DNA from: Candidatus Magasanikiibacteriota bacterium
Lineage (GTDB): Bacteria > Patescibacteriota > Patescibacteriia > Magasanikbacterales > GWA2-37-8
DNA length: 64,000 nt
Assembly (NCBI GenBank): GCA_023246715.1
Contig: JAHFHZ010000001.1
Location: 48,571 to 112,570 of the forward strand
Direction: 5' to 3'
Shown: positions 8,810 through 64,000 of the stretch, one piece after another
Layout of the letters: every line of letters starts with the position of its first letter
Position numbering within the stretch: position 1 is the first letter of the stretch
Program-made: the position numbers and the translations under genes
The notes under the pieces: model-generated
Told to the model about the DNA's origin: nothing
The model's database searches: none
The model's input: the letters and a program-made list of their open reading frames with translations, nothing else

Positions 8810-8917
8810 ATCCGTCGACAGGTCTTTGATTTTTATTAGCGTTTACATAACATATTTATTCAGTGCTGGTCGGGCAGTGGCAAGACTCCTTCCGGCAGTT
8901 AGTCTAGTTTATATCGT

Positions 8918-10944: not shown

Positions 10945-12075
10945 ATGGAAACGCAGCAACAGAACGGATTTTGGTTTGGTAAACGGGTGTTGGTGACCGG
11001 GGGGGATGGATTTGTGGCTTCGCATTTAATTAATTATTTATCCACCCAGGGCGCTTTGCCGGTTATGACGGTTCGTCACCGCCGGCCCATGTTTACGCTT
11101 GAATTGATTAAAGATAAAAATTCCTCCGAAAAAGCAATGATGCCGGATATTGAGCAGTGCGACCTACTTGATTATGAGGCTCTGCGTCGAGTGTGCGATC
11201 GCCACCAGATTGACACCATTTTTCATTTGGCGGCATCGGCAATTGTCAGCGACGCGGCTAATTCGCCGGTGTCAACGATTGAGAACAACGTCATGGGGAC
11301 TTTGAATATATTGGAAATCGCCCGGATTAATAAAATTCCGCGCGTGTTGATTGCTTCGACTGATAAATCGTATGGTGATCACTTAGATGATTCTTTGGAA
11401 CCCTTACCGTATCGTGAAGGTTACGCGCTGCGCGGGATGGACGTGTATAGCGCTTCAAAGGTCTGTGCGGATATGTTGACACAAACGTATTCCTATCAGT
11501 TTAAAGTCCCAGCGATTGTGGTGAGATCCTCGAATATTTTTGGACCAGGTGACTTGAATTTTACTAGACTGATTCCACGTACGATTATGTGTTTGCTCGC
11601 CGGTAAAGCGCCGCTGATTAATCAAGGGAATGAAAAAGTTTTGCGTGAATACATCTATATCGATGACGTGGTTCGAGCGTATACTTTTTTGATGGAGAAG
11701 GTGAGTGAAATCTACGGCGCAGATAACTGCCACATGCCGCACCACGGATCAGCAACCTATGGGTGGACGGCGTTTAACGTTGGTAATTATACAGCTGCCG
11801 AAACTGCCGATCCGCAATCATGTGATTCAATTAAAAACGTGAGCGAAATTATTGAACTTTTGCGGAAAAAAATTACTGATATTCCGCCGGTAGTGAAAGC
11901 AAAGGCGGCTAATTTTATTGAAATCCCAGACCAATATCTGGATTGCTCAAAAATTATCAATCTCGGTTTTCGCCCCCACACCAGCTTTGCCGACGGATTA
12001 CAGCGTTCGATTGATTGGTACCGCGAAAATTATAGCTATTTAGAAAAACGCGCGACGCGTTACGTGCACGCTTGA
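10945..12075 (+). CDS. NAD-dependent epimerase/dehydratase, CDP-glucose 4,6-dehydratase-like
   Basis: FWFGKRVLVTGGDGFVASHL N-terminus (RfbG-like FWxGKRV), STDKSYGD, YSASK catalytic YxxxK. Confidence 0.55.
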   Translation: METQQQNGFWFGKRVLVTGGDGFVASHLINYLSTQGALPVMTVRHRRPMFTLELIKDKNSSEKAMMPDIEQCDLLDYEALRRVCDRHQIDTIFHLAASAIVSDAANSPVSTIENNVMGTLNILEIARINKIPRVLIASTDKSYGDHLDDSLEPLPYREGYALRGMDVYSASKVCADMLTQTYSYQFKVPAIVVRSSNIFGPGDLNFTRLIPRTIMCLLAGKAPLINQGNEKVLREYIYIDDVVRAYTFLMEKVSEIYGADNCHMPHHGSATYGWTAFNVGNYTAAETADPQSCDSIKNVSEIIELLRKKITDIPPVVKAKAANFIEIPDQYLDCSKIINLGFRPHTSFADGLQRSIDWYRENYSYLEKRATRYVHA

Positions 12076-37682: not shown

Positions 37683-37689
37683 TTGCAGT

Positions 37690-37923
37690 ATGGAAAAATT
37701 ATATTCGCTAGTAGCTAAGGTGTTAGACATTGAAGCGCTTACAATTACCCCTGAAACTTCACCGGATACTGTGGAAAATTGGGATTCATTTAACGGTTTA
37801 ATGCTGGTTTCCGAGTTAGAGAATGTTTTTGGCGTTAAATTTACCATGGATGAAATTGTGGCAGTTAAAAAGGTGGGTGATATTACCGAGGCGTTGAAGC
37901 GCCACGGCGTTGAGTTGGAATAA
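37690..37923 (+). CDS. Acyl/peptidyl carrier protein
   Basis: 77 aa. The ENWDSFNGLMLVSELE segment carries the DS phosphopantetheine-attachment serine. Confidence 0.7.
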   Translation: MEKLYSLVAKVLDIEALTITPETSPDTVENWDSFNGLMLVSELENVFGVKFTMDEIVAVKKVGDITEALKRHGVELE

Positions 37924-37925
37924 GT

Positions 37926-38327
37926 ATGCGTTTTCAGGATATCGTTATCGGGAGTGTGTGTCAATTTGAACGCCAAATCAATGTGGATGACGGGCTTTCT
38001 TTTGCCAAGCTCACCGGTGATACCAACCCCTTACATACCAGCGCTGAATTTGCTGAACAGTCGCCTTTTGGGCGAACAATCGTGCACGGCTTGTTGATTG
38101 GTGGTTTGTTTTCTACTTTAGTTGGTGTGCACTGCCCGGGTGATAATTGTTTATATGTCAGCCAGACTTTACAGTTTAAAGCGCCCGTTTTTTATGGAGA
38201 CGTGGTAGTAATTCGCGGCATCGTGACCGATAAGCATGACAGTATTAGCATGGTCCGAATGAAGACAGAAGCCTTGGTGAATGGGGAAGTCAAAGTAACT
38301 GGCGAGGCGGTGGTAAAAGTGCTTTAA
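37926..38327 (+). CDS. MaoC-like (R)-specific hotdog-fold dehydratase
   Basis: FAKLTGDTNPLHTSAEFA...IVHGLL. Confidence 0.7.
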   Translation: MRFQDIVIGSVCQFERQINVDDGLSFAKLTGDTNPLHTSAEFAEQSPFGRTIVHGLLIGGLFSTLVGVHCPGDNCLYVSQTLQFKAPVFYGDVVVIRGIVTDKHDSISMVRMKTEALVNGEVKVTGEAVVKVL

Positions 38328-38339
38328 TTTTTTGAATAT

Positions 38340-39074
38340 ATGTCTGAACAAAAAACAGTGGTGGTAATCGGAGGTAGCGGCGGGATTGGTCGGGCGATCG
38401 TAGACGTTTTGATGAAAGACGAGTTTATCGTTCACGCGACTTTTTTTAGCCAAGACGAGCTTCTACATAAAGCGAGCGGGGCAGATAGATTGTTCTGGCA
38501 TAAATTAGACGCGACGGAGGCGGTGGCAGTTGCGGACTTGTGGAAGGTTATTTTGAAAACTTCGCCGACTATTAATGGGGTTGTTTTTGTCGCAACGCTG
38601 CCTACCGCATATCATCCCTTAATGAAACTGGATTGGAAAGATTTTACCGCGCATTTTAATGTTCAGGTCGGAACCTTTTTTCATACTCTGGCGGCTTTGC
38701 GCGAAAATTTGTCGGCAATCGGACCATGTCAGTTTATTCCGATTTTGACTGAGTACTGCCAAGGTCGACCCCCGGCTGGTTTAAGCGATTATGTTGCCGC
38801 TAAGATGGCTCTACAGGGTTTTGCTCGCACTATGGTGGCAGAGTTGGCCAAGTACGGTTGCCGGGTAAATATGATTTCGCCGGGGATTACGCTTACTGAA
38901 TTAACCAGTTCGCTGCCACCTAAATTTTTAGAAATTGCCGCTGAACAGAATCCGCTCAAGCGACTAGCGCAGAGCACAGACGTGGCGGCCGTGGTGAAAT
39001 TTTTATTATCTGAACAAGCGGCATACTTGAATGGCGTCAATATTCCGGTGAATGGTGGGTCGACAGTACAATAA
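38340..39074 (+). CDS. SDR family oxidoreductase (3-oxoacyl-ACP reductase-like)
   Basis: VVVIGGSGGIGRAI, YVAAKMALQG (YxxxK). Confidence 0.7.
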   Translation: MSEQKTVVVIGGSGGIGRAIVDVLMKDEFIVHATFFSQDELLHKASGADRLFWHKLDATEAVAVADLWKVILKTSPTINGVVFVATLPTAYHPLMKLDWKDFTAHFNVQVGTFFHTLAALRENLSAIGPCQFIPILTEYCQGRPPAGLSDYVAAKMALQGFARTMVAELAKYGCRVNMISPGITLTELTSSLPPKFLEIAAEQNPLKRLAQSTDVAAVVKFLLSEQAAYLNGVNIPVNGGSTVQ

Positions 39075-39100
39075 CTCATTTTGTCACGGGCTTATTTGTT

Positions 39101-40579
39101 ATGCTTTTTAATTCACTTCAATTTTTGATTTTTTTCCCGGTTGTGACCGTGCTGTATTTTGCATTACAGCATCGATTTCGCTGGATTTTATTATTATTGT
39201 CGAGCTGCTATTTTTACATGGCGTTTGTTCCCAAGTATATCTTGATCCTGTTTGCGGTTATTTTGATTGATTACTTCATGGGGTTGGCGATCGCGCGGGA
39301 ATCTAATCTGCAGAGAAAAAAGGCCTTTCTATTGATCAGCATTGTGGCCAACATAGGCATTTTGTTTGTTTTTAAATATTTTAATTTTTTTAACGCCAAC
39401 TTTACTGCCCTGGCCGAAATGATTGGCTGGAATTATCCCATCAAACATTTAGCGCTTATTTTGCCCATTGGCTTGTCTTTCCATACTTTTCAGAGCCTGA
39501 GCTATATCATTGAAGTGTACCGCGGCAATTACCCGGCCGAGCGCCGTTTAGGCATTTATGGCCTGTACGTCTTATTTTTTCCGCAACTAGTGGCCGGCCC
39601 GATTGAGCGTCCACAGCATATTTTGCCCCAGCTGCATATTGAACAACGGTTTGATTTTACGCGTGTTGCTTCTGGGTTGCGCCTCATGCTGTGGGGTTTG
39701 TTCAAGAAAATTGTCATCGCCGATAATTTAGCGGTGGTTGTATCCCAGGTGTATGATTATCCGTCACAGTTTGCGGGAGCCCATTTTATCGTAGCTACCG
39801 TCGCTTTTTCCATTCAGCTTTTTTGTGATTTTTCGGGGTACTCGGATATTGCCATCGGCAGCGCGCGTGTTCTGGGTATTCGTTTAATGCAGAATTTTAA
39901 CCGACCATATAGCGCGCCATCAATTACGGAATTTTGGAAGCGCTGGCATATTTCACTTACCAGCTGGTTTCGTGATTATGTCTATTTGCCGCTCGCGCGT
40001 TTCAAAGTAACTCCAATTTGGCTATATGCCGCGACGATTATTGTTTTTACCCTGAGTGGTTTATGGCATGGCGCTAACTGGACTTTTGTTGTTTGGGGGC
40101 TCTACCACGGAATCTATATGACTGTTTCTTTGGCTACGCGGAGGATTAGGGCGCGGATAGTTAAACTACTTCATCTTAATGCTTGGCCCCGATTACACCG
40201 AGCAATTCGAGTAGCCACAACTTTTTCGTTGGTCAGTATCTCGTTCATTTTTTTTCGAGCAACATCATTGTCCGATGCGTGGTATATGGTATCTCATTTG
40301 AGCGAAGGGTTAATGGCAACCTTTGGCTCATTGTTCAACCCGCTTAATCTTTCGGGTTTTATTGAATCCCTTGGCATTAGTCCTTTTACTTTTTTACAAG
40401 TACTGATTGCCGTGGCGCTGCTTACGACCGTTTATACTTTGAAAGCCAAGACAACAGCGTTTTTACGTTTTGATGCTGCTCCACCCTGGGTGCGTTGGAG
40501 TGTTTATAACGCGTTGATTATGTGGATTATATTTTTTGGTTACTTTGGCGAGCAACCGTTTATTTATTTTCAGTTCTAG
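39101..40579 (+). CDS. MBOAT-family membrane-bound O-acyltransferase (DltB/AlgI/PatA-like)
   Basis: 492 aa, polytopic, with the invariant-His region FWKRWHISLTSWFRDYVYLPL. Confidence 0.8.
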   Translation: MLFNSLQFLIFFPVVTVLYFALQHRFRWILLLLSSCYFYMAFVPKYILILFAVILIDYFMGLAIARESNLQRKKAFLLISIVANIGILFVFKYFNFFNANFTALAEMIGWNYPIKHLALILPIGLSFHTFQSLSYIIEVYRGNYPAERRLGIYGLYVLFFPQLVAGPIERPQHILPQLHIEQRFDFTRVASGLRLMLWGLFKKIVIADNLAVVVSQVYDYPSQFAGAHFIVATVAFSIQLFCDFSGYSDIAIGSARVLGIRLMQNFNRPYSAPSITEFWKRWHISLTSWFRDYVYLPLARFKVTPIWLYAATIIVFTLSGLWHGANWTFVVWGLYHGIYMTVSLATRRIRARIVKLLHLNAWPRLHRAIRVATTFSLVSISFIFFRATSLSDAWYMVSHLSEGLMATFGSLFNPLNLSGFIESLGISPFTFLQVLIAVALLTTVYTLKAKTTAFLRFDAAPPWVRWSVYNALIMWIIFFGYFGEQPFIYFQF

Positions 40580-40581
40580 CT

Positions 40582-41784
40582 ATGCCCAGCTGGAAAACAA
40601 TCCGTAGCGCGGTTGGCCAACTATGGCTGGTTTTTTTGGCCGGACTTTTATGTTTAGGGGTGGTAGAGGGGGCGCTCCGGCTTAAGAGTCGATGGGGGGA
40701 ACAGCGTGGTTACCGGGTAACCCAGCCAAATGGTTTGGTCACGCTTGAGCCAGCTTTGGATACCCTTATTCGCGGCAGTACCGGCGAGTTGATTCATTTT
40801 AAAACTAATCACGAAGGGTTCGCGAGCGAAAATCACGCGGTGGTGGCTGCCACGGGCACTAAACGAATTGCTTTTTTAGGTAATTCTTTTACTCAGGGAA
40901 CAGATGTTGATTACGAGAAAAAAATGACGACGCTTATTCAGCGTTTATATCCCAAAACCAGTGACGGCCAAAAAGTTGAAATAATGAATTTTGCCATTGG
41001 CGGCTATAGCATCGTTGAACAAATGGTGCTTTACAATGAATATGTACGCAAATATCGCCCAGCGGCCGTGATTCTAGTATCTTATGTGGGCTATGATTTT
41101 TCAACTAACCTTCGTTTTTTACCTGAACAAAAAATCATCCTGGAAGGCGATATTCAGGCCCTCACGGCTGCAACGGTGAAACAAGCCACGGATGCTTTTA
41201 CCAAACAACAGCAAACACTCAAGAATCGACTGGTCGCGACATTCGAGGTGGTGCGGTTTTTGATCCGACTGACTCAGGAAAACCAAACGCTTAACACGGC
41301 CGCGGTTAACCTCGGGTTGCTTAAGCAACCATTTAGCGAGCAGGCTGCGAACTATTTGACTGACATTTGGGCTTATTTTAATCCTAATTCCGCGCCACAC
41401 CGCGAAGTAATGGAATTTACGGCCGCGACGATTAAGCGTTTGCAAAGCCAGATAACCAGAGACGGGGCTTCTTTTGGTCTGGTGCTTATTCCAAGTTATT
41501 GGCAGGTTAACGAAAAATATATTGCACAGCTTAAGGCAAAGCACATCCCTTTGCAGCTCGACTTGCCGAACACTACCCTTAAAAAACAACTCAATAACGC
41601 ATTGCCAATTTTAGATTTATCCACGCCGATTTATCGAGCATTGAACACGGAGCGTACCCCCATTTTTATTAAAGATATAGGCCATTTCACCGAGCAGGGC
41701 AATAGCTTGGCAGCGGAACAAATCGTTGAATTTTTGAAAGCCAATGAGTTTCAATTGCGGCTGAAACGCCCGGGCAAAAATTGA
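40582..41784 (+). CDS. DltD/AlgJ/AlgX-like SGNH-fold protein (extracytoplasmic acyl-transfer partner of MBOAT)
   Basis: N-terminal TM anchor; IAFLGNSFTQGTDV (GDS-like block). Confidence 0.45.
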   Translation: MPSWKTIRSAVGQLWLVFLAGLLCLGVVEGALRLKSRWGEQRGYRVTQPNGLVTLEPALDTLIRGSTGELIHFKTNHEGFASENHAVVAATGTKRIAFLGNSFTQGTDVDYEKKMTTLIQRLYPKTSDGQKVEIMNFAIGGYSIVEQMVLYNEYVRKYRPAAVILVSYVGYDFSTNLRFLPEQKIILEGDIQALTAATVKQATDAFTKQQQTLKNRLVATFEVVRFLIRLTQENQTLNTAAVNLGLLKQPFSEQAANYLTDIWAYFNPNSAPHREVMEFTAATIKRLQSQITRDGASFGLVLIPSYWQVNEKYIAQLKAKHIPLQLDLPNTTLKKQLNNALPILDLSTPIYRALNTERTPIFIKDIGHFTEQGNSLAAEQIVEFLKANEFQLRLKRPGKN

Positions 41785-46376: not shown

Positions 46377-47075
46377 ATGGTTAAGCAAAATATCGTCGTC
46401 GCGACCATCCGCCCCTGGAACATTGAACGGTTCGCCCGTTGGGTTCCGCCGGAAGGCTATGAAGCCCAGTTGATTTCGGATAAGGGTTCTTTGACACTAT
46501 CGGCACTCACTCAATTGGCGCCACGGTATGTTTTTTTTCCACACTGGTCATGGATTATTCCAACAGAAATTTTGAATAATTTTGAATGCGTGCTGTTTCA
46601 CATGACCAATCTGCCGTTTGGCCGTGGAGGTAGCCCAATGCAGAATCTGATTGAACAAGGGATTTATCAAACCAAAATTTCAGCCATCCGGGTTGCTGAT
46701 GGGTTGGATGAAGGGCCGGTGTACTTGAAGCGCTCTTTGGATTTATCAACCGGTTCGGCTCAGCAACTGTTTGAAAAAATGGCTGATGAAATTTTTGTCA
46801 TGATGACCGAAATTACCACTACTCAACCGCAACCGGTTGAGCAAAGCGGCGAGCCCACTTTTTTTAAACGGCGTACCCCGGAACAAAGCCAAATTACCCC
46901 CGGTCTATCGGGTCGAAAATTGTACGATTTTATCCGTATGCTGGATGCCGAAGGTTACCCGCGAGCTTTCGCACATGTTGGCGACGTTCGTGTTGAATTT
47001 AGTGGCGCCGAGTTGTTGGATAATGAACAGGTGGCAGCCCGAGCGATTTTTAAATCCATTGATCCTATTGTTTAA
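46377..47075 (+). CDS. Formyl-transferase-domain protein (sugar N-formyltransferase candidate)
   Basis: HMTNLPFGRGGSPMQN matches the HxSLLPxxRG N10-formyl-THF binding motif. Confidence 0.6.
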   Translation: MVKQNIVVATIRPWNIERFARWVPPEGYEAQLISDKGSLTLSALTQLAPRYVFFPHWSWIIPTEILNNFECVLFHMTNLPFGRGGSPMQNLIEQGIYQTKISAIRVADGLDEGPVYLKRSLDLSTGSAQQLFEKMADEIFVMMTEITTTQPQPVEQSGEPTFFKRRTPEQSQITPGLSGRKLYDFIRMLDAEGYPRAFAHVGDVRVEFSGAELLDNEQVAARAIFKSIDPIV

Positions 47076-51864: not shown

Positions 51865-53028
51865 ATGAATACCAGAATTGTCAGTGATTCCAAGGATCTA
51901 ATTCGCTGTTCGCGCTGCGTGATGCCCGAAACCCAGGAGCCGATTATGTTCGACGCCGAGGGGGTTTGTAATACCTGCCGGAATTTAGAAATAAAACAGC
52001 AAAAAATTGACTGGGACGCCCGACTGAAACAGTTTGAGGAAATCATTAATCAATACCGGGGCAAGTACCAGTACGATTGCATTGTCCCATTTAGCGGCGG
52101 CAAGGATTCCACCTATACCGTGTGGGCGCTGGTTAAAAAGTTCGGTTTGAAGCCGTTGGTGGTGCGGTACAACCACCATATGATTCGGCCGCAAACTTTG
52201 CGCAATCAGGAAATGACGATTAAACAGCTTAAGTTGGATTTTTTGGAATATCGCACTGATTGGGATTTGGTAAAAAAATTAATGCGCGTCAGCCTGGACC
52301 GCAAGGGTGATATTTACTGGTACCAACACACTGGCATTTTTTGTTTCCCGATGCACATGGCGATTAAGTTCAACGTACCATTGATTATTTGGGGCGAGCC
52401 CACGGCCGAGTACGCCGCGTATTACCGCTATGATGAAGAAGAAATCGGCGACGAGGAGCGCTTCAATTATTTTATCAATCTCGGAATTACCGCCCAAGAC
52501 ATGATCGGTTTTTTGAATGATCCGACCGTAAAATTAGCTGATCTTTGGGCCCATCAGTTCCCGGCCCGCAAAGATTTACAGGCGATTGAATGTCGCTCAA
52601 TTTGTTTGGGAACCTACACTCCGTGGGATGTAAAGGCGCAGGCCAAGATTATTCAAGACGAACTTGGTTGGAAAGGTGATATGGTAGAAGGGGTGCCACC
52701 GGAGTATAACTACGAAAAAATTGAAGACATGCTACAGGGCGTACAAGATTATCTTAAATATATCAAACGTGGCTATGGTCGCATGAGCCACCTGGCTTCG
52801 ATTGATATTAGGAATGGTCGATTGACCCGCGAAAAGGCAATGCAAATGGTGGAGCAATGGGAAGGCCGCCGCCCCGGGAGCCTTGATGCGTTATTAAAAT
52901 GGCTCAATTTGTCCGAAGTGGAATTTTATGAAATTGCCAATCGGCATCGAGTGAGCCCCTGGAAACACGATTCTTCCCAGACCAAACGCGGCGAATCGCT
53001 CCCAGATCAAAAGGATTGGGTGATTTAA
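51865..53028 (+). CDS. N-acetyl sugar amidotransferase (PP-loop ATPase; WbuX/PseA family)
   Basis: N-terminal Cys4 ribbon (CSRCVMPE...CNTC), PP-loop VPFSGGKDSTY. Confidence 0.8.
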   Translation: MNTRIVSDSKDLIRCSRCVMPETQEPIMFDAEGVCNTCRNLEIKQQKIDWDARLKQFEEIINQYRGKYQYDCIVPFSGGKDSTYTVWALVKKFGLKPLVVRYNHHMIRPQTLRNQEMTIKQLKLDFLEYRTDWDLVKKLMRVSLDRKGDIYWYQHTGIFCFPMHMAIKFNVPLIIWGEPTAEYAAYYRYDEEEIGDEERFNYFINLGITAQDMIGFLNDPTVKLADLWAHQFPARKDLQAIECRSICLGTYTPWDVKAQAKIIQDELGWKGDMVEGVPPEYNYEKIEDMLQGVQDYLKYIKRGYGRMSHLASIDIRNGRLTREKAMQMVEQWEGRRPGSLDALLKWLNLSEVEFYEIANRHRVSPWKHDSSQTKRGESLPDQKDWVI

Positions 53029-54428: not shown

Positions 54429-55481
54429 ATGATTAAAGACATTCGCCTGGGTAATCGCGTGCTGGGGTTGGAACAACCGGTTTTTATTTCGGCCGAAGTA
54501 GGCACTACCTGCAACGGTGATTTTGAAACTGCTAAAAAATTAATCAAAGCCGCCAAAGATGCTGGCATGGACGCAGTAAAATTCCAAATTCTTGACCCGC
54601 TTGATAAATACAGCGACCATTCGCTCACTTATACCTATAAGCGGTTCAACGGCGAAGAAGTAACTGAAAATTTTATTGAGATGCTTAAAAAGTACGTGCA
54701 ACCCAAAGAAAATTGGCGGGCGCTAAAGGAATACGCCGATGAGTTGGGAATTATTATGTTTGCCACCCCCGACCATATGGCGGCGGTGGATCTGATGGAA
54801 GAATTGGGGATGCCCGCCTATAAAGTGGCCACTTGGGACGTAACCTGGTATCCATTTTTACGCAAAATTGCTTGTACCAAAAAACCAGTTGTTTTGGACT
54901 TTGGCGCTTCGGATAAAGAAGAAATTGCCCGGATTTTGAAAATTTTTGAAGAAGAAGGCAATGACCAATTGATTTTACTGCATTGCTACCATACCAATGA
55001 TTTTGCCCAAATGAACATCCGCACCGTGGAATATTTGCGTGAAGCGTTTGGCCACCTGAGCGGCTATTCGGCAGATGACGCGAATCATGATTTAGATTTT
55101 ATGTCACTCCCATATCGCCCGGTGTATATTGAAAAGCGTTTGACACTGAACCGTGAGGACCCTAACCATCATCATGGTAAGGCCGCGCAGCCAGAAGAAA
55201 TGGTGGCTTACGTACAGCGTATTCATGAATTGAGTAAAGCGCGTGGAGTGTTTGATGTGCGCCCGACTGAAGGAGATTTGCGCGATAAATTTAAGTATTT
55301 CCGCCGAATTGTGGTTTATCGCGACCTTAAAGCAGGTGAAACGTTGACGGAAGAAAACACGATGTGCAAGCGTCCATTGCAAGGCGGGGTCGACCCACAG
55401 TATTTGCCTTTATTTTTGGGGCGTACGGTTAAACGGGCGATGAAGGAAAACGAACCAGTCCAATGGGTTGACTTGGAATAA
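54429..55481 (+). CDS. NeuB/PseI/LegI-family nonulosonic acid synthase
   Basis: PVFISAEVGTTCNGDFETAKKLIKAAKDAGMDAVKFQ; C-terminal SAF-like domain. Confidence 0.8.
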   Translation: MIKDIRLGNRVLGLEQPVFISAEVGTTCNGDFETAKKLIKAAKDAGMDAVKFQILDPLDKYSDHSLTYTYKRFNGEEVTENFIEMLKKYVQPKENWRALKEYADELGIIMFATPDHMAAVDLMEELGMPAYKVATWDVTWYPFLRKIACTKKPVVLDFGASDKEEIARILKIFEEEGNDQLILLHCYHTNDFAQMNIRTVEYLREAFGHLSGYSADDANHDLDFMSLPYRPVYIEKRLTLNREDPNHHHGKAAQPEEMVAYVQRIHELSKARGVFDVRPTEGDLRDKFKYFRRIVVYRDLKAGETLTEENTMCKRPLQGGVDPQYLPLFLGRTVKRAMKENEPVQWVDLE

Positions 55482-55490
55482 TTTTCATTT

Positions 55491-56732
55491 ATGAATTACT
55501 GCCAACGCTGCTGTTATCCGGCCAATGCAAAACCTACGATTGCTTTTGACGATCAAGGAGTTTGCAGCGGGTGCCGATTGCACGACGCGCGCAAGCAAAT
55601 TGATTGGAAAGAGCGCGAAACGTGGTTCCGGGAAATTATGGAAAAATATAAAGCCGAAGGCAAAAAGCGCGGCAATATTTATGACTGCGTGATCGCGGTC
55701 TCGGGTGGCAAAGACAGTTTCTATCAAGCGTGGTTGGCTAAACAATACGGCATGAATCCGCTTTTGGTGACGTTTAACCATACGTTTAATACCAAAGTAG
55801 GGATTTATAATTTGCAAACGATGGTCAAAAGCCTGAATCTGGACTTGTTGCGCTTTACCCCGAACGAAGAATCAGTGCGCAAAATTTCGCGCCATATGGT
55901 GAAGACGGTGGGTGACTGCGATTGGCATTCGCATGCTGGCATTATGACTTTCCCCATTCGCGTGGCCGTGCAATACAACACCCCGTTGATTATCTGGGGT
56001 GAACACGGGTTTGCGGACCAGACGGGTATGTTCAACCAAAATGACATGGTGGAATTCACCAAGAAAACTCGCCGCGAACACAGCATGCGCGGTTTTGAGC
56101 CTGAGGATTTGGTGGGGCATGAAGGGCTGGCTGAAAAAGATTTAGGACCGTACCATTATCCATCGGACGAAGAAATTGAGCGCGTTGGTTTGCGCGGTAT
56201 TTACATCAGTAATTACTTTTTCTGGAATGGCAAAGCCCAGGCGGAATTTTTGATTAAGAATTTTAATTTCCGTACGGCCGCGCAGAAGGACCGAACGTAT
56301 AATATTTACGACAAAATTGATGGGTTCCATCAATGCGGCACGCATGATTATTTGAAATACCTGAAGTTTGGATATGGTCGGGCGACTGATGACGCTAGTA
56401 TGGATATCCGCCATGGTCGGATGACCCGCGAAGAGGGGATTGAAATGGTACAAAAATACGATCATGTTCGGCCAACCGATTTGGATGTATACCTGAAGTG
56501 GGTGGGACTAAGCGAGGCAGAATTAATGGGCGTGGTGGATACCATGCGCGACCAGAAAATTTGGCAGAAAGACGCTGCTCACAAATGGCAGATAACTGAT
56601 TCAATTGGTAATCATATCAATGATCCTGGAGCGCAAACGGCGAAATTACCGCTTGATGGAGATCGCGGTGGTTATACCGCGAATCTACCCCCGTATTATT
56701 GGGAGCGTGATGATCAATATATTATTTTGTAG
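55491..56732 (+). CDS. N-acetyl sugar amidotransferase (second paralogue; PP-loop ATPase)
   Basis: CQRCCYPA...CSGC zinc ribbon, VSGGKDSFY PP-loop. Confidence 0.8.
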   Translation: MNYCQRCCYPANAKPTIAFDDQGVCSGCRLHDARKQIDWKERETWFREIMEKYKAEGKKRGNIYDCVIAVSGGKDSFYQAWLAKQYGMNPLLVTFNHTFNTKVGIYNLQTMVKSLNLDLLRFTPNEESVRKISRHMVKTVGDCDWHSHAGIMTFPIRVAVQYNTPLIIWGEHGFADQTGMFNQNDMVEFTKKTRREHSMRGFEPEDLVGHEGLAEKDLGPYHYPSDEEIERVGLRGIYISNYFFWNGKAQAEFLIKNFNFRTAAQKDRTYNIYDKIDGFHQCGTHDYLKYLKFGYGRATDDASMDIRHGRMTREEGIEMVQKYDHVRPTDLDVYLKWVGLSEAELMGVVDTMRDQKIWQKDAAHKWQITDSIGNHINDPGAQTAKLPLDGDRGGYTANLPPYYWERDDQYIIL

Positions 56733-56753: not shown

Positions 56754-57389
56754 ATGATCGGCATTGTAAATTATCAGGCCAATAATTTGCGCTCAGTTGC
56801 CAACGCTCTTAAGGCGATTGGCGCTGAATTTTTTATTGCCGATGAACCAGCTCGCTTGGCCAAGGCAACGGCTATTGTGCTGCCTGGCGTGGGCGCTTTT
56901 AGCGACAGTATGACCAATTTGAGGCGTCTGGGCTTTATCGAGCCCCTGCAACAGGCGGTGCGCGTTGAAAAAAAACCGGTGTTAGGCCTCTGTCTGGGGA
57001 TGCAGTTGATGGCAGAAAAAAGTTTTGAATTTGGCGAGCATGAAGGTTTGGGTTGGTTACAAGGAACAGTAGAAAAAATTGAGCCAAACGATCAGTCGTT
57101 CAGGGTGCCGCACATGGGTTGGAATAATTTGGAACATATTTCGCCCGCCAGCATGCTGTTGCAGAGTATCGTGCAGCCAGCGGTAGTTTATTTTGTGCAT
57201 AGTTATTATTTTAAACCGGTCGCTGGAGCGGAAGCGGTAGTAACTTCAACTGTTTCACACGGACTCACCCTTACAGCTACGGTGGAAAAAGATTATATTT
57301 TTGGTTGTCAGTTCCATCCCGAAAAAAGCCAGCAAGCCGGTTTGCTGATTTTGCAAAATTTTGTTGAATATACCAAACAACATGCTTAA
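56754..57389 (+). CDS. hisH: HisH-like glutamine amidotransferase (second copy)
   Basis: MIGIVNYQANNLRS, GLCLGMQLM, FHPEKS. Confidence 0.85.
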   Translation: MIGIVNYQANNLRSVANALKAIGAEFFIADEPARLAKATAIVLPGVGAFSDSMTNLRRLGFIEPLQQAVRVEKKPVLGLCLGMQLMAEKSFEFGEHEGLGWLQGTVEKIEPNDQSFRVPHMGWNNLEHISPASMLLQSIVQPAVVYFVHSYYFKPVAGAEAVVTSTVSHGLTLTATVEKDYIFGCQFHPEKSQQAGLLILQNFVEYTKQHA

Positions 57390-58188
57390 GAAGCGTTTGA
57401 TTAGCTGCCTGCTGTGGCGGGAAGGCACGCTGGTTCAATCCCGACAATTCCAGCATACTAATTCGGTTGGAGATGCCCTGACAGCGGTTGATTTTTTTAA
57501 TACCTGGGCGATTGACGAGATCGTGCTGCTGGACGTTAGTCGCACTCCGAAACATCGAGCGTTGTTTCACGAACATTTACGCGAATTGTCGGAACGTTGC
57601 TTTGTTCCCTTGGCGGTGGGTGGCTGGGTAACTACCCTTGCGGAAATTCGACAGTTACTTTCCGAAGGGGCGGACAAAGTGGTGGTTAATACGGCCGCAG
57701 TCCGAGATCCAAATTTTATTACGATGGCTTCTGAATCTTTTGGCGCTCAATGTATTGTTGTTTCAATTGATGCCAAGAAAAATACAACTGGCGAGTATGA
57801 GGTATTTGTTAATCGAGGGAAGGATGCTGCCGGAATGCGGCCTGATCAATTAGCAAAAGTTTCCGAAGAACGGGGAGCTGGGGAAGTTTTTATTACTTCG
57901 ATTGATCATGATGGCAGGCAAGCCGGCTATGATATGGAGCTAGTTCGTTTGGTGCGACAGGCGACCAGCGTGCCGGTGGTTGCTTCGGGCGGGGTGGGTG
58001 AATGGTCGCACCTAGCCGAGGCAATTATCGAAGGCGGGGCTGATGCGGTTTCGGCGGCAAATATTTTTCATTATTCGGATCAAAGTACCAAAAAAGCCAA
58101 AGATTATTTGAAGTTAGTAGGGATTGACGTTCGCGAACCGGAATTTTATAAGATTTTATTACCACGCAAGCCGGTTTATAGGGTATAA
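57382..58188 (+). CDS. hisF: HisF-like cyclase subunit (second copy)
   Basis: MLKKRLISCLLWREG; VGGWVTTLAEI. The start overlaps the hisH stop (ATGCTTAA). Confidence 0.8.
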   Translation: MLKKRLISCLLWREGTLVQSRQFQHTNSVGDALTAVDFFNTWAIDEIVLLDVSRTPKHRALFHEHLRELSERCFVPLAVGGWVTTLAEIRQLLSEGADKVVVNTAAVRDPNFITMASESFGAQCIVVSIDAKKNTTGEYEVFVNRGKDAAGMRPDQLAKVSEERGAGEVFITSIDHDGRQAGYDMELVRLVRQATSVPVVASGGVGEWSHLAEAIIEGGADAVSAANIFHYSDQSTKKAKDYLKLVGIDVREPEFYKILLPRKPVYRV

Positions 58189-58197
58189 TCAGTTCTT

Positions 58198-60504
58198 ATG
58201 TTATTCGAACAGCTTAATCAGGGTTCGTGCCGGGCATATTTGATTGGCGACGAAAAGTCACGCCAAGCTATTTTGATTGATCCTCGACTGGAATTTGTGC
58301 CGAACTATCTTGTTTATTTGGAAAAAAATGGGCTAAAACTTACTCATGTCATTGATACACACACCCACGCCGACCATATTTCGGGGGCGACGCTCCTGGC
58401 TAAAGAAAATGGCGCCAGCTATTTAATGCATCGCGCTTCACCGGTGAGTACGCTCGCGGAGCGAATTGAAGATGGTTTTACCCTTGAGCTGGGCCAGATT
58501 AAAGTGTCGGCGCTCTATACCCCGGGGCACAGTAAAGATTCCGTGTCCATTTTGGTGCCGGGAAAAATTTTAACGGGTGATGCTTTATTTTTAGATGACG
58601 GCGGCGCGGGCCGCGATGACTTATACGGTGGTGATTCAGGCGAACATTGGGAAAGCTTGCAGCGTTTGGGCGCGCTCGATGAACGATTGTTGGTTTTGCC
58701 AGGCCACGAGTATCGCGGGTACGCGCCTTCGACCCTGGCCCAACAAAAACGAACTAATCCAATGTTGCGTTACGAAAATAAACAATCATATGTTGATTTT
58801 ACTCATAACACTTTGTATGGCGCGGCTGACTGGATGAAACCGATTGTGGCGGCCAACATCGCGGGTGTAACCGAAGCCTTGGCAGAGCCGCTGGGAGCAG
58901 ACACGGCTTGTGAAGTCATGGCTTGCGAACCAATGAGCCCGTGCGAGCCTGTTAAGGGAGCTGTCAGTTTTGCGGGCGCGGTATTGAGTGTGCCCCAGCT
59001 GCTCGAGAAATTAAACAGCACCGAGCCGCCAATAGTATTAGACGTGCGGGAAGAACACGAATTGTTAGGGGAGCTGGGTAGACTGGATAATATTATTCAC
59101 ATTCCCGTTGGTGAATTGACGGCGCGTTTGAGTGAACTTGTTGAATACAAACACCGCGAATTGATCGTGGTTTGCCGCACCAGCAACCGATCACTTAAAG
59201 CAGGGGGTATACTCTCTCGCGCTGGATTTATCAAGGTGGGGGTTTTAGCCGGTGGCATGCATGCGTATCGAGGGGTGGAAAATTCATCCTCGTGGATGGT
59301 TGATCAACCAATTTATTTGGATCACGCCGCAACGACATACCTTGATCCGCGGGTGAAAGCCGTAATGGAACCTTTTTGGGAAACTGATTTTGGTAATCCT
59401 TCAAGCACTTACAGTCTTGGTCGCCGCTCCAACGATTCTGTTGAAACCGCGCGGGCCAGAATTGCTGAATTGCTTAAGGTCGAAGCACAGGAAATTATTT
59501 TTACCGCTGGGGGAACAGAAAGCATTAATTTGGCTATTTTTGGAGTAGTCGAAAGACTTATTGCGCAGGATTCTAAACCTCATATTATTACCTCTGCCAT
59601 TGAACATAGCGCGGTACTTAAAAGTGTTGAAGCGCTGCAACGCCGGGGGTGCGCGGTGACGATTTTGTCGGTTGACCGGGAAGGATTTATTGATTTGCGG
59701 CAACTCGAGCAGGCAATTACCCCGGCGACGACTTTGGTATCAATTATGTATGCTAATAACGAGATTGGCACTGTTCAACCAATCGCGCAGATTGGAAAAT
59801 TATTACGTAAAATAAACGAAACACGTGAACCGAAAAAATTACCCCGTATTTTATTTCATAGTGATGCTTGTCAGGGAGCCGGCGCTTTGAGTATTGATGT
59901 GCAAAAACTTGGCGTTGATTTATTGACAATTAATGGAAGCAAGCTCTACGGGCCTAAGCAGACCGGCTTATTGTATTGCCGAACGGGAGTAGCTCTGACG
60001 CCGATTATATATGGTGGTGGCCAGGAGCATAGTTTAAGAAGTGGAACGGAAAACGTCCCGGGCATTGTTGGTTTGGCAAAAGCTCTGGAGCTTGCCCAAC
60101 AAGAAAGCGAGGCGGAAAACTATCGTTTGCGTGAACTGCGCCAGTTCGGGTTTGATTGGCTAAAGAAGGAAGTCCCCGAGATGTTGGTGAACGGCGCAGA
60201 GGAAGACTCTGCGTCTGAGCTCCGGCGGTTACCAAATAATATTAATGTTTCTTTTCTAGGGGTTAATGGTGAAAATTTGCTGGTGTATTTAGACCGGCAT
60301 GGTATCTGCGTTTCAACTGGCAGCGCTTGTTCGGCAAAGCATACTGGAGCGTCGCATGTGTTAACCGCTATTGCCTGCCCGCCTGATTATATTAATGGCA
60401 GTTTGCGTATCACGCTTGGTAAAAGGACCAACAAAAACCAATTACAAAAAGCACTTATGGTTGTCGCAGACGGCGTTCGGCGGCAACGAGAAAAGCGAGT
60501 TTAA
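58198..60504 (+). CDS. Tri-domain fusion: MBL-fold persulfide dioxygenase/glyoxalase II-like + rhodanese + class V cysteine desulfurase (NifS/IscS-like)
   Basis: DTHTHADH, TPGHS, TGDALF (MBL); CRTSNRS (rhodanese Cys loop); IYLDHAATTYLDP...SGTENV and a 768-aa length (desulfurase). Confidence 0.75.
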   Translation: MLFEQLNQGSCRAYLIGDEKSRQAILIDPRLEFVPNYLVYLEKNGLKLTHVIDTHTHADHISGATLLAKENGASYLMHRASPVSTLAERIEDGFTLELGQIKVSALYTPGHSKDSVSILVPGKILTGDALFLDDGGAGRDDLYGGDSGEHWESLQRLGALDERLLVLPGHEYRGYAPSTLAQQKRTNPMLRYENKQSYVDFTHNTLYGAADWMKPIVAANIAGVTEALAEPLGADTACEVMACEPMSPCEPVKGAVSFAGAVLSVPQLLEKLNSTEPPIVLDVREEHELLGELGRLDNIIHIPVGELTARLSELVEYKHRELIVVCRTSNRSLKAGGILSRAGFIKVGVLAGGMHAYRGVENSSSWMVDQPIYLDHAATTYLDPRVKAVMEPFWETDFGNPSSTYSLGRRSNDSVETARARIAELLKVEAQEIIFTAGGTESINLAIFGVVERLIAQDSKPHIITSAIEHSAVLKSVEALQRRGCAVTILSVDREGFIDLRQLEQAITPATTLVSIMYANNEIGTVQPIAQIGKLLRKINETREPKKLPRILFHSDACQGAGALSIDVQKLGVDLLTINGSKLYGPKQTGLLYCRTGVALTPIIYGGGQEHSLRSGTENVPGIVGLAKALELAQQESEAENYRLRELRQFGFDWLKKEVPEMLVNGAEEDSASELRRLPNNINVSFLGVNGENLLVYLDRHGICVSTGSACSAKHTGASHVLTAIACPPDYINGSLRITLGKRTNKNQLQKALMVVADGVRRQREKRV

Positions 60505-60515
60505 TTTTTTCTAAA

Positions 60516-60552
60516 TAAAAAAGAGCTGGTTATTTTCAGCTTCTTTTTTTAT
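60516..60552. terminator. Bidirectional rho-independent terminator candidate (A-tract, imperfect GAGCTG/CAGCTtC stem, T-tract) between convergent genes
   Basis: Sequence aaaaaagagctggttattttcagcttcttttttt. Confidence 0.4.
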
Positions 60553-60746
60553 TTTCCACGCGTATTAGCAGCCGAAGCCAGCGCGAGCAGCATGGACGCC
60601 ACGGCCAGAACCGGGTGCCATGGTCCCACGCCGTTGAGCCATTCAAGGATGTCGCCGCCGCTGATCAGCATCCAGCCGAACCAACCAGCTAGGACGAGTC
60701 CGCCAGCTAGTCGGAGGACCTGTAGTAGTGCTGTGCTTTTTTTCAT
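60549..60746 (-). CDS. Small hypothetical membrane protein (65 aa, 2 TM)
   Basis: Hydrophobic ORF flanked by a terminator and an upstream intergenic region. No homology recognised. Confidence 0.3.
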   Translation of the reverse strand: MKKSTALLQVLRLAGGLVLAGWFGWMLISGGDILEWLNGVGPWHPVLAVASMLLALASAANTRGK

Positions 60747-60794: not shown

Positions 60795-60823
60795 TTGTCA
60801 ATATTTTTGGCTTAGGTTAAACT
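60795..60823 (+). promoter_or_regulatory. Sigma-70-like promoter candidate: TTGTCA-N17-TAAACT upstream of the second neuB-like gene
   Basis: Read from the sequence, in a 136-bp AT-rich gap. Confidence 0.3.
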
Positions 60824-60882
60824 AATTCTTGGCGTTATATTGATGGTAGGGTTATATTAATTTCATTAAGTGGATAATTAGC

Positions 60883-61968
60883 ATGAAGTCTTTCTGTATT
60901 CCTACTCCTCAGGGCGGTTTGCGCCACATTGGGCCAGGCCAGCCCTGTTTTATTATCGCCGAAATGTCCGGAAATCATCACCATGATTATGATAAAGCCG
61001 TAGAAATTATTAAAGCGGCCAAGGCGGCTGGCGCCGACGCGATTAAAATTCAGACCTACACCCCGGATACTATGACGATTGATTGCGATAAGCCGTGGTT
61101 TATGGTGAAAGGCAAAGATCAGCCCGAATTGTGGCAGGGGCAGAAGCTCTATGATTTATACCAGACTGCTTATACGCCGTGGGAATGGGACGCTAAACTG
61201 CAGAAAGTCGCGGAAGCCGAAGGATTGATTTTTTTCTCCACCCCGTTCGATCCGTCCGCGGTTGATTTTTTGGAACCGCTTAATCCACCTTGTTATAAAA
61301 TTTCTTCGTACGAAGCAACCGACTTTACCCTGCTCCGACGCGTGGCGCAGACCGGCAAGCCGGTTATACTGTCGGTTGGATTCGCGGAGCGTGACGAGGT
61401 TGATTTTGCAATTGAAACCCTCCGTAAATATGGCGCGAAGGATATTGGCATTCTGCACTGCGTCACCGCCTATTCGGACAAGCCCGAAATTGATGAAACG
61501 AATATGCTGACAATGCTTGATATCCGCGACCGCTACGACGTGGTGTGCGGTTTTTCGGATAATAACGCCGGAATTGAAATTCCGACTGTAGCCGCCATGG
61601 CGGGAGCTTCGATTGTTGAAAAGCATTTTATGATTGAGCGCCAGGAAGGCGGGCCGGACGCGCGGTTTTCGATTGAACCCAGTGAGTTTGAAAAAATGGT
61701 CCAAAGCATTCGACGCGCGGAGCGAATTATGGGAAAGGTTAATTACGGCTGCCAGAGTGATAAGGAACGGGAAAATACTTTTTTTCGCCGATCGTTGTTT
61801 GTGGTGGAGGATATTAAAAAAGGAGAAAAGTTTACCTCGCGTAACGTACGCTCAATCCGGCCTTCCAAGGGGATGGAGACTAAGTACTATGATGAGGTGA
61901 TTGGCCAAAGCGCGGCAGAGGATATTGAACGCGGCACGCCATTTGTTTGGGAGTTGATTCAAAAATAG
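60883..61968 (+). CDS. NeuB/PseI/LegI-family nonulosonic acid synthase (second copy)
   Basis: CFIIAEMSGNHHHDYDKAVEIIKAAKAAGADAIKIQ; C-terminal SAF domain (...GEKFTSRNVRSIRP). Confidence 0.8.
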   Translation: MKSFCIPTPQGGLRHIGPGQPCFIIAEMSGNHHHDYDKAVEIIKAAKAAGADAIKIQTYTPDTMTIDCDKPWFMVKGKDQPELWQGQKLYDLYQTAYTPWEWDAKLQKVAEAEGLIFFSTPFDPSAVDFLEPLNPPCYKISSYEATDFTLLRRVAQTGKPVILSVGFAERDEVDFAIETLRKYGAKDIGILHCVTAYSDKPEIDETNMLTMLDIRDRYDVVCGFSDNNAGIEIPTVAAMAGASIVEKHFMIERQEGGPDARFSIEPSEFEKMVQSIRRAERIMGKVNYGCQSDKERENTFFRRSLFVVEDIKKGEKFTSRNVRSIRPSKGMETKYYDEVIGQSAAEDIERGTPFVWELIQK

Positions 61969-63186: not shown

Positions 63187-64000
63187 ATGCCAAAGAATTC
63201 TCGTTTTTCAGCTCTGCTCAATAAGCGCCACAGCCTTATTCCCGGCGCGGCGCATACCTACTCTAAAGGTGATGATCAATTCCCACGGACTGCTCCGCCA
63301 GCGATTGTGCGCGGTAAGGGTGCGTACGTTTGGGGAACAGACGGAAAGAAATATTTGGATTGGTGCATGGGATTGCGCTCGGTGCTTTTGGGTCATGCGT
63401 ATGAACCGGTTAACCGCGCGGTGGCCAAGCAAATGAGCCTGGGGACTAATTTTGGCCGCCCCGCGATGATTGAATTTGAGTTTGCCAATGAATTGGTAAA
63501 AATGTTGCCGAACACCGACATGGTGAAGTTTGCCAAGAATGGTTCCACGGTTACCACGGCCGCTACCAAGCTCGCGCGAGCGTTTACTGGGCGCAAATAT
63601 ATTGTGGTTTGCTCGAGCCAGCCTTTTTTTAGCTATGATGATTGGTTCGTGGGCACCACGCAATCGCCAGCGGGGATCCCCGAAGAAGTCCGCAAATTGA
63701 CCCTGACGTTCGCGTATAACGATATTGCCAGCCTGGAGCGTGTTTTTGCCGAACATCAAAACGAAATCGCCTGCGTGATTTTGGAAGTTATGGCCGGCGA
63801 CGAACCCAAGGATAATTTTTTGCAGAAGGTAGAGGCGCTCACGCATCGCGAAGGCGCGCTGTTGATTATTGACGAGATGATTACCGGGTTTCGCTATGGA
63901 TTCCCGGCTTTGCATGACCGTTATGGGCTTAAGCCGGATCTAACTACCTATGGAAAGGGGATCGCCAACGGGTATTCGTTGGCAATTTTGGCCGGGCGCA
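63187..64000 (+). CDS. Class III PLP aminotransferase (glutamate-1-semialdehyde aminomutase-like). The 3' end is truncated by the window edge.
   Basis: The frame is open from ATG 63187 to the window end. GAAHTYSKGDDQFP, DEMITGFR and TYGKG (PLP Lys) are present. The listed minus ORF 63208..63915 is its antisense shadow. Confidence 0.75.
   Translation, partial: MPKNSRFSALLNKRHSLIPGAAHTYSKGDDQFPRTAPPAIVRGKGAYVWGTDGKKYLDWCMGLRSVLLGHAYEPVNRAVAKQMSLGTNFGRPAMIEFEFANELVKMLPNTDMVKFAKNGSTVTTAATKLARAFTGRKYIVVCSSQPFFSYDDWFVGTTQSPAGIPEEVRKLTLTFAYNDIASLERVFAEHQNEIACVILEVMAGDEPKDNFLQKVEALTHREGALLIIDEMITGFRYGFPALHDRYGLKPDLTTYGKGIANGYSLAILAGR

Follow-up and report, generated by a model that had tools for sequence, protein, structure and literature searches.

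The question raised by this locus is why a sulfur enzyme of rare composition lies inside a large island of glycan genes. The stretch analyzed here, hereafter the window, comprises 64,000 nucleotides of a Candidatus Magasanikiibacteriota genome (assembly GCA_023246715.1, contig JAHFHZ010000001.1, positions 48,571 to 112,570), and the gene in question is a single 768-a.a. open reading frame (ORF) in which a persulfide dioxygenase (PDO), a rhodanese, and a cysteine desulfurase are joined in one polypeptide (Table 1). On balance, we favor the reading that this ORF encodes an intact, tri-functional sulfur-trafficking enzyme, derived from the fusion of a PDO-rhodanese gene with a desulfurase gene, which would serve cysteine and sulfane-sulfur homeostasis and would be a passenger in the glycan island. 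The catalytic residues of all three domains are present; the chemistry is proposed by analogy with characterized relatives.

Searching the ORF against Pfam returned three domains without overlap, namely Lactamase_B (PF00753; a.a. 8-170, E 2.6e-14), Rhodanese (PF00581; a.a. 267-357, E 6.6e-11), and Aminotran_5 (PF00266; a.a. 372-750, E 2.4e-68). A first-pass annotation, made from the sequence without database searches, had reported the motifs HTHADH and CRTSNRS and a complete NifS/IscS-type desulfurase in this ORF, and had called the domains as a PDO-like metallo-β-lactamase (MBL), a rhodanese, and a NifS/IscS-type desulfurase; the ORF lies where it had been placed, all motifs were found in it, and the domain calls proved correct.

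NCBIfam scores by themselves leave the MBL domain undecided, at 93 bits for GloB and 90 bits for Blh, both under cut-off. Using phmmer against the PDB, the N-terminal half matched BpPRF, the PDO-rhodanese of Burkholderia phytofirmans (5VE3, E 1e-39), the Myxococcus xanthus-type PDO (4YSB, 1e-37), and human ETHE1 (4CHL, 5e-26), while the match to glyoxalase II was far weaker (1QH3, 1e-12). The metal site holds the HxHxDH motif together with the downstream His/Asp/His (H55, H57, D59, H60, H111, D128, and H170), and these residues, along with R139, are invariant in 11 PDO-rhodanese sequences. By sequence, the domain is an ETHE1/BpPRF-type PDO, nearer to characterized PDOs than to glyoxalase II. 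One alignment spans a.a. 5-359 of the ORF onto BpPRF residues 26-367, co-linear over both domains, and pairs the rhodanese C326 with the BpPRF cysteine mutated to serine in the 5VE4 variant. The loop itself is of the active CRxxxR type, a cysteine plus five residues with basic side chains (C326-R-T-S-N-R331-S), and both C326 and R331 are invariant in the same 11 sequences.

The C-terminal ~400 residues match class-I cysteine desulfurases in the PDB (IscS, NFS1, and NifS-like; E 1e-81 to 1e-75) and contain H470, D556, the pyridoxal 5′-phosphate (PLP) lysine K582 in the motif NGSKLYGPK (a.a. 579-587, nt. 59932-59958), and C711 in the SxGSAC-type loop STGSACSAK (a.a. 706-714, nt. 60313-60339). 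Given that the domain scores below every NCBIfam equivalog cut-off (NifS, 415.3 vs 530.75; DndA, 343.8 vs 480; IscS, 333.6 vs 548), it is, by its scores, a member of the class but no canonical NifS, IscS, or DndA.

The combination of these three domains is very rare. In a word-indexed search of ~15 billion proteins (5.8 billion clusters), only four sequences displayed it, the query and three others, which are 52-53% identical to the query and keep the same continuous reading frame. When 1.84 billion representatives (50% identity) were scanned exhaustively with HMMER, only the query cluster came up, with no second three-domain protein, which bears out the earlier remark that the addition of a desulfurase to a PDO-rhodanese is unusual; the next matches after the fusions were standalone PDO-rhodaneses of ~365 a.a. 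(P0241, 51% over a.a. 1-364) and standalone desulfurases. Among the best 80 matches in 185,579 species-representative genomes the fusion was not found, these matches covering only a.a. ~370-765, and the nearest relatives of the desulfurase half there are single NifS-type genes of small-genome lineages (Patescibacteria and DPANN) and of Clostridia. We did note that, after the standalone relatives, the next group near the desulfurase half consists of NifS-SelD (selenophosphate synthetase) fusions (~734 a.a., ~40% identity; P0068-P0115), which shows this desulfurase clade to be prone to joining with enzymes that consume its product.

An architecture this rare, which differs from an unfused gene layout described below (contig L088) by possibly one base change, could stem from mis-assembly, from the read-through of two genes by a sequencing error, or from a decaying pseudogene, yet we find this barely credible here. 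The identical protein with identical neighbors occurs on independently assembled contigs in ENA (8.8 kb) and Logan (3.1 kb), and the same protein is also recorded on a 142-kb NCBI contig. The linker of the query is longer than, and unlike, the overlap in L088. Moreover, all catalytic residues are invariant in the alignment of the four fusions (H55, H57, D59, H60, H111, D128, R139, H170, C326, R331, H470, D556, K582, and C711). Since the independent contigs agree and three diverged homologues share the architecture, the fusion gene is genuine and intact, and no artefact of assembly or frameshift. The invariance of three active sites across fusions that are only ~53% identical argues, in turn, that all three activities are under purifying selection.

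The likely origin of the fusion can be read from the loci of its relatives. On the metagenomic contig L088, a 457-a.a. FAD/NAD(P)-binding flavoprotein (nt. 1216-2589), a PDO-rhodanese (P0241, 369 a.a.), and a 402-a.a. Aminotran_5 protein are encoded as separate genes with overlapping ends. The desulfurase of this contig is 59% identical to the C-terminal half of the query, the top value for any standalone relative in our searches, and its PDO-rhodanese, 50% identical to the N-terminal half, is the closest standalone relative found. The PDO-rhodanese ends in …AYRKYENENHLS at its stop codon and the desulfurase starts with MKTIYLDHAATT, with a 20-nt overlap in different frames, inside which a single-base (1-nt) indel would join both genes. 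The linker of the query (…AYRGVENSSSWMVDQP-IYLDHAATT…) corresponds to these two gene ends (…AYRKYENENHLS and MKT-IYLDHAATT…). The locus of one of the other fusions (P0002, on contig L001) comprises an Rrf2 regulator, a flavoprotein homologous to that of L088 (39% identity; nt. 8653-10020), and then the fusion, with overlapping gene ends; the regulator scores best as CymR (85 bits), followed by IscR (70 bits). A third and looser linkage is seen on contig L112, where DsrE-like, NifS, NifU, Fe/Mn superoxide dismutase, and PDO-rhodanese genes form one array, unfused. Given these three arrangements, the fusion can thus be taken as a Rosetta-stone record of a functional pairing between PDO-rhodanese and cysteine desulfurase. 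As part of the explanation we favor, and with the same measured confidence, it would have arisen by the joining of two adjacent, translationally overlapping genes of a sulfur operon, a BpPRF-type PDO-rhodanese and a NifS-like desulfurase.

More distant standalone PDO-rhodaneses (P0273, P0303, P0341, and P0119) have no adjoining desulfurase, and the tight pairing is therefore confined to the closest relatives. Among the more distant ones, P0341 (45% identical to the N-terminal half) is encoded divergently to the tRNA 2-thiouridylase MnmA, a PP-loop thiolase, in groundwater metagenome contigs (L093:5628-8077 and L094). The two remaining fusions lie beside genes for IF-2 and ArgRS (L002) and beside HtpX and a methyltransferase gene (L083). 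The L002 locus was dropped as evidence of mobility, as the jump in GC there coincides with a transposase, and the fusion and the downstream IF-2 gene are alike in composition.

The flavoprotein that accompanies the PDO-rhodanese in L001 and L088 belongs to a “YdhS-like” FAD/NAD(P)-binding family of ~1,800 relatives (P0390-P0509 among them), for which no characterized member was found. Members of this family are naturally fused to PF00753 MBL domains (in cyanobacteria, ~715-775 a.a.) and to cysteine dioxygenase (PF05995, ~635-655 a.a.), and the MBL domain of the Nostoc fusion is 38% identical to the PDO domain of the query with all its motifs kept. The nearest relative of the flavoprotein (P0391) lies, on 19 contigs, in a cluster with a divergent Rrf2, DUF2490, TauE/SafE (sulfite-exporter family), and anion transporters. 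While no PDB sequence matched the flavoprotein, its predicted model (pLDDT 95) resembles class-B N-hydroxylating flavin monooxygenases, with FzmM as the best match (E 6e-26, TM 0.77) and KtzI, PvdA, and SidA following. An assignment as sulfide:quinone oxidoreductase (SQR) was rejected, given the lack of a PDB sequence match and a predicted fold that is N-hydroxylase-like rather than that of an SQR or disulfide reductase. Together, the fusions and neighbors of this family point to oxidative sulfur chemistry around cysteine, and the family may represent a so far unexplored oxygenase of sulfur or nitrogen whose substrates derive from cysteine.

By analogy with characterized enzymes, the PLP domain (K582) would convert L-cysteine to L-alanine and load the sulfur as a persulfide on the mobile-loop C711, from which the persulfide would move to C326 of the rhodanese. 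From C326, either an acceptor in the cell or a low-molecular-weight thiol would take up the sulfur, and the mono-iron site of the PDO (H55/H57, H111, and D128) would oxidize the resulting RSSH with O2 to sulfite; the rhodanese could also combine sulfite and persulfide into thiosulfate. Fusions of PDO with rhodanese occur commonly, and the two work together in the oxidation of persulfides, the rhodanese of BpPRF supplying glutathione persulfide (GSSH) to its PDO (PMC9163753). The net effect of such a sequence of steps would be a controlled mobilization of cysteine sulfur with a built-in oxidative disposal of surplus sulfane sulfur. Sulfane-sulfur transfer from a desulfurase to a rhodanese is reportedly the subject, going by its title, of work on RhdA by Cartini et al. 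in 2011, which is cited in PMC9163753. Oxygenase-type partners and the CymR-like regulator lead us to lean towards cysteine or sulfane-sulfur homeostasis as the role of the enzyme.

In the window, as the first-pass annotation had noted, the fusion comes directly after the second WbuX/HisHF module and before a NeuB paralogue (Table 1). A terminator scan gave a match on both strands (nt. 60523-60542) in the hairpin behind the fusion, whose RNA fold reaches −13 kcal/mol (z = −4.5; 0/200 shuffles equally stable), and promoter-like sites at nt. 60795-60858 precede PseI, where a new transcription unit begins. Given the 9-bp gap to HisF2, the strong hairpin behind the gene, and the separate promoter-like sites before PseI, the fusion most likely closes the WbuX2-HisH2-HisF2 transcript. 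The 379-bp gap between the fusion and PseI holds the terminator hairpin and a small convergent ORF, which shares the bidirectional terminator with the fusion gene and matched no family in Pfam. An RNA element in this gap was rejected, with a sub-threshold L20-leader match as the only hit (E 0.98), and no tRNA was detected in the window.

Table 1. Features of the fusion gene and its immediate surroundings, with positions counted within the window.
Feature	Position (nt.)	Strand	Evidence
WbuX2, N-acetyl sugar amidotransferase with PP-loop SGGKDS and Zn tetracysteine; heads the unit that the fusion closes	55491-56732	+	TIGR03573, 357.6 bits vs cut-off 203; PDB 8WEX, E 1e-60
HisH2, glutaminase subunit, Cys-His-Glu triad intact	56754-57389	+	TIGR01855, 216.7 bits; alignment
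HisF2/WbuZ-like cyclase-fold subunit	57361-58188	+	PF00977, 184 bits; WbuZ, 271.5 bits; 9 nt before fusion ATG
Tri-domain ORF (PDO/rhodanese/cysteine desulfurase)	58198-60504	+	ATG start, 768 a.a.; Pfam, NCBIfam, three homologues of the same architecture
PDO domain, MBL fold, a.a. 1-211	58198-58830	+	HTHADH a.a. 55-60 (nt. 58360-58377), H111, D128, R139, H170; PDB phmmer
Rhodanese domain, a.a. 267-357	58996-59268	+	Catalytic loop CRTSNRS a.a. 326-332 (nt. 59173-59193); Pfam PF00581
Rhodanese-desulfurase linker (fusion junction)	59269-59310	+	…AYRGVENSSSWMVDQP before IYLDHAATT…
Class-I cysteine desulfurase domain, a.a. 372-750	59311-60447	+	H470, D556, PLP-Lys K582, persulfide Cys C711; Pfam PF00266
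Bidirectional intrinsic-terminator-like hairpin (A-tract, 7-bp GC-containing stem, U-tract)	60513-60554	both	9 nt past fusion stop codon
Convergent 65-a.a. ORF, hydrophobic, predicted small membrane protein	60549-60746	-	GGAG ribosome-binding site; called as gene in two independent assemblies
PseI-type pseudaminic acid synthase (NeuB paralogue)	60883-61968	+	TIGR03586, 429.9 bits vs cut-off 340

Whether the association with glycan genes is conserved was addressed from both sides. WbuX, HisH/HisF, and NeuB genes are absent from the loci of the three other fusions (L001, L002, and L083). Using tblastn, the WbuX, HisH, HisF, NeuB, PseB, and CMP-transferase sequences of the window gave no match near 80 desulfurase relatives, and near 80 PDO-rhodanese relatives they gave no WbuX, HisH/HisF, or NeuB and only one PseB-like match, which was weak and partial (31% over 144 residues, L113). 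The nearest relatives of WbuX2 (72% and 70% identity) lie in syntenic PseB, NeuB, WbuX, HisH, and HisF loci, in which a GNAT-formyltransferase comes after HisF and no desulfurase is present. The place of the fusion in the glycan island is thus most likely lineage-specific, and the gene would be a passenger there, not a step of sugar modification. The first-pass annotation had offered an unrelated sulfur-handling gene as its fallback, which fits these comparative data. One of the nearest WbuX2 loci (L084:1-2293) adjoins a 968-a.a. flagellin gene, which suggests that the WbuX2 part of the island derives from a flagellin-glycosylation locus.

The amidotransferases themselves look unremarkable. 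In alignment, the Cys-His-Glu triad is kept in both HisH paralogues, and WbuX2 keeps every family-invariant residue. In an alignment of 20 sequences of the WbuX clade, the conserved cysteines are C4, C7, C25, and C28, plus C66, and a tetracysteine motif of the C4/C7/C25/C28 type has been shown to bind zinc in LpNASAT (8WEX; PMC10607449). WbuX2 is without the Cys pair or the three-Cys [4Fe-4S] site of PP-loop thiolases, and its ammonia donor, HisH2/HisF2, is present. As for its other cysteines, C282 is common to relatives without the fusion, and C143 (nt. 55917-55919), which is I/V/L in the 19 other sequences, lies between the clade-invariant D142 and W145 in a clade-invariant G-D-x-x-W-H motif that is absent from the solved LpNASAT structure.

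Several points weigh against a passenger enzyme of sulfur homeostasis. It looks futile for one polypeptide to make persulfide and also to destroy it, unless most of the flux goes into delivery to an acceptor, and the activities of all members are predicted from sequence. Co-transcription with the amidotransferase module is almost certain, there being no terminator before the fusion, and its expression is therefore predicted to be coupled to the glycan genes; its GC, GC3, and codon-usage likelihood also fall inside the range of the island (z = −1.47), although, in regard to a foreign origin, this composition gives no evidence either way. The flavoprotein and Rrf2 partners of L001/L088 are absent from the window by tblastn, and the comparative base is small, consisting of three other fusions, one unfused operon, and one looser array. 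A possible alternative, to which we give perhaps half the weight of the reading we favor, is a working cysteine desulfurase for Fe-S clusters, thio-cofactors, or tRNA thiolation, with the rhodanese as its delivery arm and the PDO as a safety valve for persulfide that is not taken up. The single NifS-type genes nearest to the desulfurase half among the best 80 species-representative matches would suit such a role, as would the PDO-rhodanese in the DsrE-NifS-NifU-SOD array of L112, the secondary IscR score of the L001 regulator, and the standalone PDO-rhodanese divergent to MnmA. Even so, none of the four fusions (in the window, L001, L002, and L083) adjoins a thiolase gene or a NifU/IscU or SufBCD scaffold gene, such a scaffold occurring only in the unfused L112 array, and the desulfurase domain falls under the NifS and IscS equivalog cut-offs. 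Furthermore, oxidation rather than delivery is what the conserved partners point to, namely a flavoprotein of oxygenase-like type and, in the wider family of the latter, thiol dioxygenases and a protein of the sulfite-exporter family. Among the ~55 Pfam-annotated ORFs of the window, no radical-SAM enzyme or Fe-S client was found, nor was an SQR (Pyr_redox_2) gene found in the window.

A role in the glycan pathway itself appears far less probable. The first-pass annotation had speculated that persulfide might be passed to a WbuX paralogue to give a thio-modified sugar. In such a scheme, which we consider very unlikely, the desulfurase and rhodanese would deliver sulfur to the N-acetyl group adenylated by WbuX2, or the PLP domain would cleave a cysteine adduct, to give a thioacetamido (thioamide) nonulosonic acid. 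Similarly doubtful is its extended form, in which the fusion was recruited as sulfur donor and sulfur replaces or competes with ammonia at the WbuX2-adenylated N-acetyl carbonyl of a pseudaminic- or legionaminic-type sugar, the product being an N-thioacetyl nonulosonic acid and the PDO clearing unused persulfide. To our knowledge, no thioamide is known on a bacterial cell-surface sugar. The shared transcription unit with WbuX2-HisH2-HisF2 speaks for such chemistry, as does the fact that PP-loop adenylation followed by sulfur attack is established, and YcfA-YcfC makes a thioamide through an adenylating enzyme and a PLP-dependent C-S lyase (PMC12494993). C143, inside the G-D-x-x-W-H motif and a cysteine in WbuX2 only among the 20 aligned sequences, could be counted on the same side, but it replaces a hydrophobic residue, a conservative change. 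The linkage is found at 0/3 other fusions and 0/160 loci of relatives, and the nearest WbuX2 loci are without a desulfurase; WbuX2 has its own ammonia supply with the triad intact; its conserved cysteines form the zinc site and not a thiolase-type Cys pair or three-Cys Fe-S site; and such a pathway would leave the PDO domain without a role. The sulfur-suited cysteine that the first-pass annotation had proposed to look for in the second amidotransferase thus comes down to the lone, non-conserved C143; the checks that this annotation had named mostly speak against its proposal, and the thio-sugar idea, while chemically conceivable, lacks comparative support. We give no better chance to a supply of sulfite or L-alanine for glycan decoration, by way of a sulfonated sugar (through an SQD1-like enzyme) or an N-alanyl nonulosonic acid. 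The predicted net reaction does yield alanine and sulfite, and the gene sits in a >64-kb glycan island that encodes many tailoring enzymes; against this, both are ordinary metabolites, the linkage is not conserved elsewhere, and no sulfotransferase, SQD1-like, or other sulfite-using enzyme occurs among the ~55 annotated ORFs. Sulfoquinovose-type use of sulfite was rejected, as the largest short-chain dehydrogenase/reductase (SDR) candidate (nt. 10945-12075) matches dTDP-glucose 4,6-dehydratases and not SQD1.

The Pfam annotation of the ~55 ORFs identifies the window as a glycan island, comprising GT4/GT2 transferases, four PMT_2 enzymes, two AsnB-like amidotransferases, a flippase, a DegT aminotransferase, PseB-like and RmlD-like SDRs, a carbamoyltransferase, a CMP-transferase, two WbuX-HisH-HisF modules, and two NeuB paralogues. 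The first NeuB paralogue (nt. 54429-55481) falls under the cut-offs of both NeuB/NnaB (196 vs 400 bits) and PseI (178 vs 340 bits), whereas the second is a clear PseI. The island may make two distinct nonulosonic acids, each with its own amidotransferase module. WbuX1 (nt. 51865-53028) is only 36% identical to WbuX2 and has C160, C243, and C247 where the alignment of the WbuX2 clade has T, L/V/I, and an otherwise invariant Y, respectively; it is probably of a different subfamily with a different sugar substrate. Further upstream, a formyltransferase-like ORF (nt. 46377-47075) overlaps by 239 nt a PIG-L deacetylase ORF (its listed start being a TTG at nt. 46837, region to 47790), the true start of which is probably further downstream; at the syntenic loci L084 and L086, by contrast, the domain of the formyltransferase forms a fusion with a GNAT. 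FkbH-like, SDR (FabG-like), MBOAT, and AlgX/SGNH-like genes, grouped at nt. 35871-41784, suggest a system for acyl or glyceryl O-modification of the polysaccharide. At the far end, an Aminotran_3 gene (438 a.a.) starts at nt. ~63187 on the forward strand and runs past the window end at nt. 64000, with CN_hydrolase next on the ENA contig, and a 235-a.a. minus-strand ORF (nt. 63208-63915) is therefore probably spurious.

Cysteine desulfurases and PDO-rhodanese fusions have each been studied in depth. In the literature searched, we found no description of a single polypeptide that both makes persulfide from cysteine and oxidizes persulfide to sulfite. Should the proposed chemistry hold, the fusion would offer a route from cysteine to alanine plus sulfite or thiosulfate without cysteine dioxygenase, and a natural stoichiometric model for the hand-over from desulfurase to rhodanese to dioxygenase, while the YdhS-like partner seen in relatives gives a hint of a sulfur-oxygenation pathway yet to be explored. 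In glycan biology, the case advises caution, in that a sulfur enzyme inside a nonulosonic-acid island is, on present evidence, no sign of thio-sugar chemistry.

Each part of the enzyme has a counterpart among known systems. BpPRF (5VE3/5VE4/5VE5) shares with the query the HxHxDH motif, the additional His/Asp/His, the GxGRxD arginine, and the rhodanese Cys, but by their alignment the two are distantly related, BpPRF stops behind its rhodanese (373 a.a.) where the query adds a 400-a.a. cysteine desulfurase, and the operon context differs. CstB of Staphylococcus aureus is a multidomain PDO with a C-terminal rhodanese that acts on persulfides, and in which persulfide is passed between cysteines in one protein (PMC12934615). 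Its partners in the cst operon are SQR and CstA, whereas that of the query is a desulfurase, and the CstB-related MBL-rhodanese chains in the PDB (3TP9 and 3R2U; E 4e-21 and 8e-16) match the query far worse than ETHE1-type PDOs. The sqr-pdo-rhodanese clusters of heterotrophic bacteria resemble L001/L088 in combining a flavoprotein, a PDO, and a rhodanese in one operon, and follow the same logic, in that sulfane sulfur is made and then oxidized to sulfite or thiosulfate (PMC9163753). They differ in that the sulfur comes from H2S rather than from cysteine through a desulfurase, the flavoprotein of L001/L088 is no SQR, and of the L001/L088 operon the window has the fusion only.

The desulfurase domain compares with NifS, IscS, and NFS1 in its full-length match, the PLP Lys, the cofactor His/Asp, and the mobile-loop Cys in SxGSAC, and departs from them in scoring below the equivalog cut-offs, in having no IscU/NifU neighbor, and in the PDO-rhodanese fused to its N-terminus. 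Relays from IscS to ThiI or RhdA likewise hand a loop-Cys persulfide to a rhodanese Cys, and two-domain Rhodanese+Aminotran_5 proteins exist (P0065), but these relays serve biosynthetic acceptors and include no dioxygenase. The YcfA-YcfC pair of 6-thioguanine biosynthesis (PMC12494993) bears a superficial resemblance to the pairing of WbuX2 with a desulfurase, given that an adenylating enzyme is encoded with a PLP enzyme; YcfC, however, works as a C-S lyase on a cysteine adduct, there is no glutaminase partner, and the WbuX pairing is not conserved. Set among these systems, the fusion is best taken for a fused and very rare version of the PDO-rhodanese/desulfurase pair, which has come to lie last in an amidotransferase operon.

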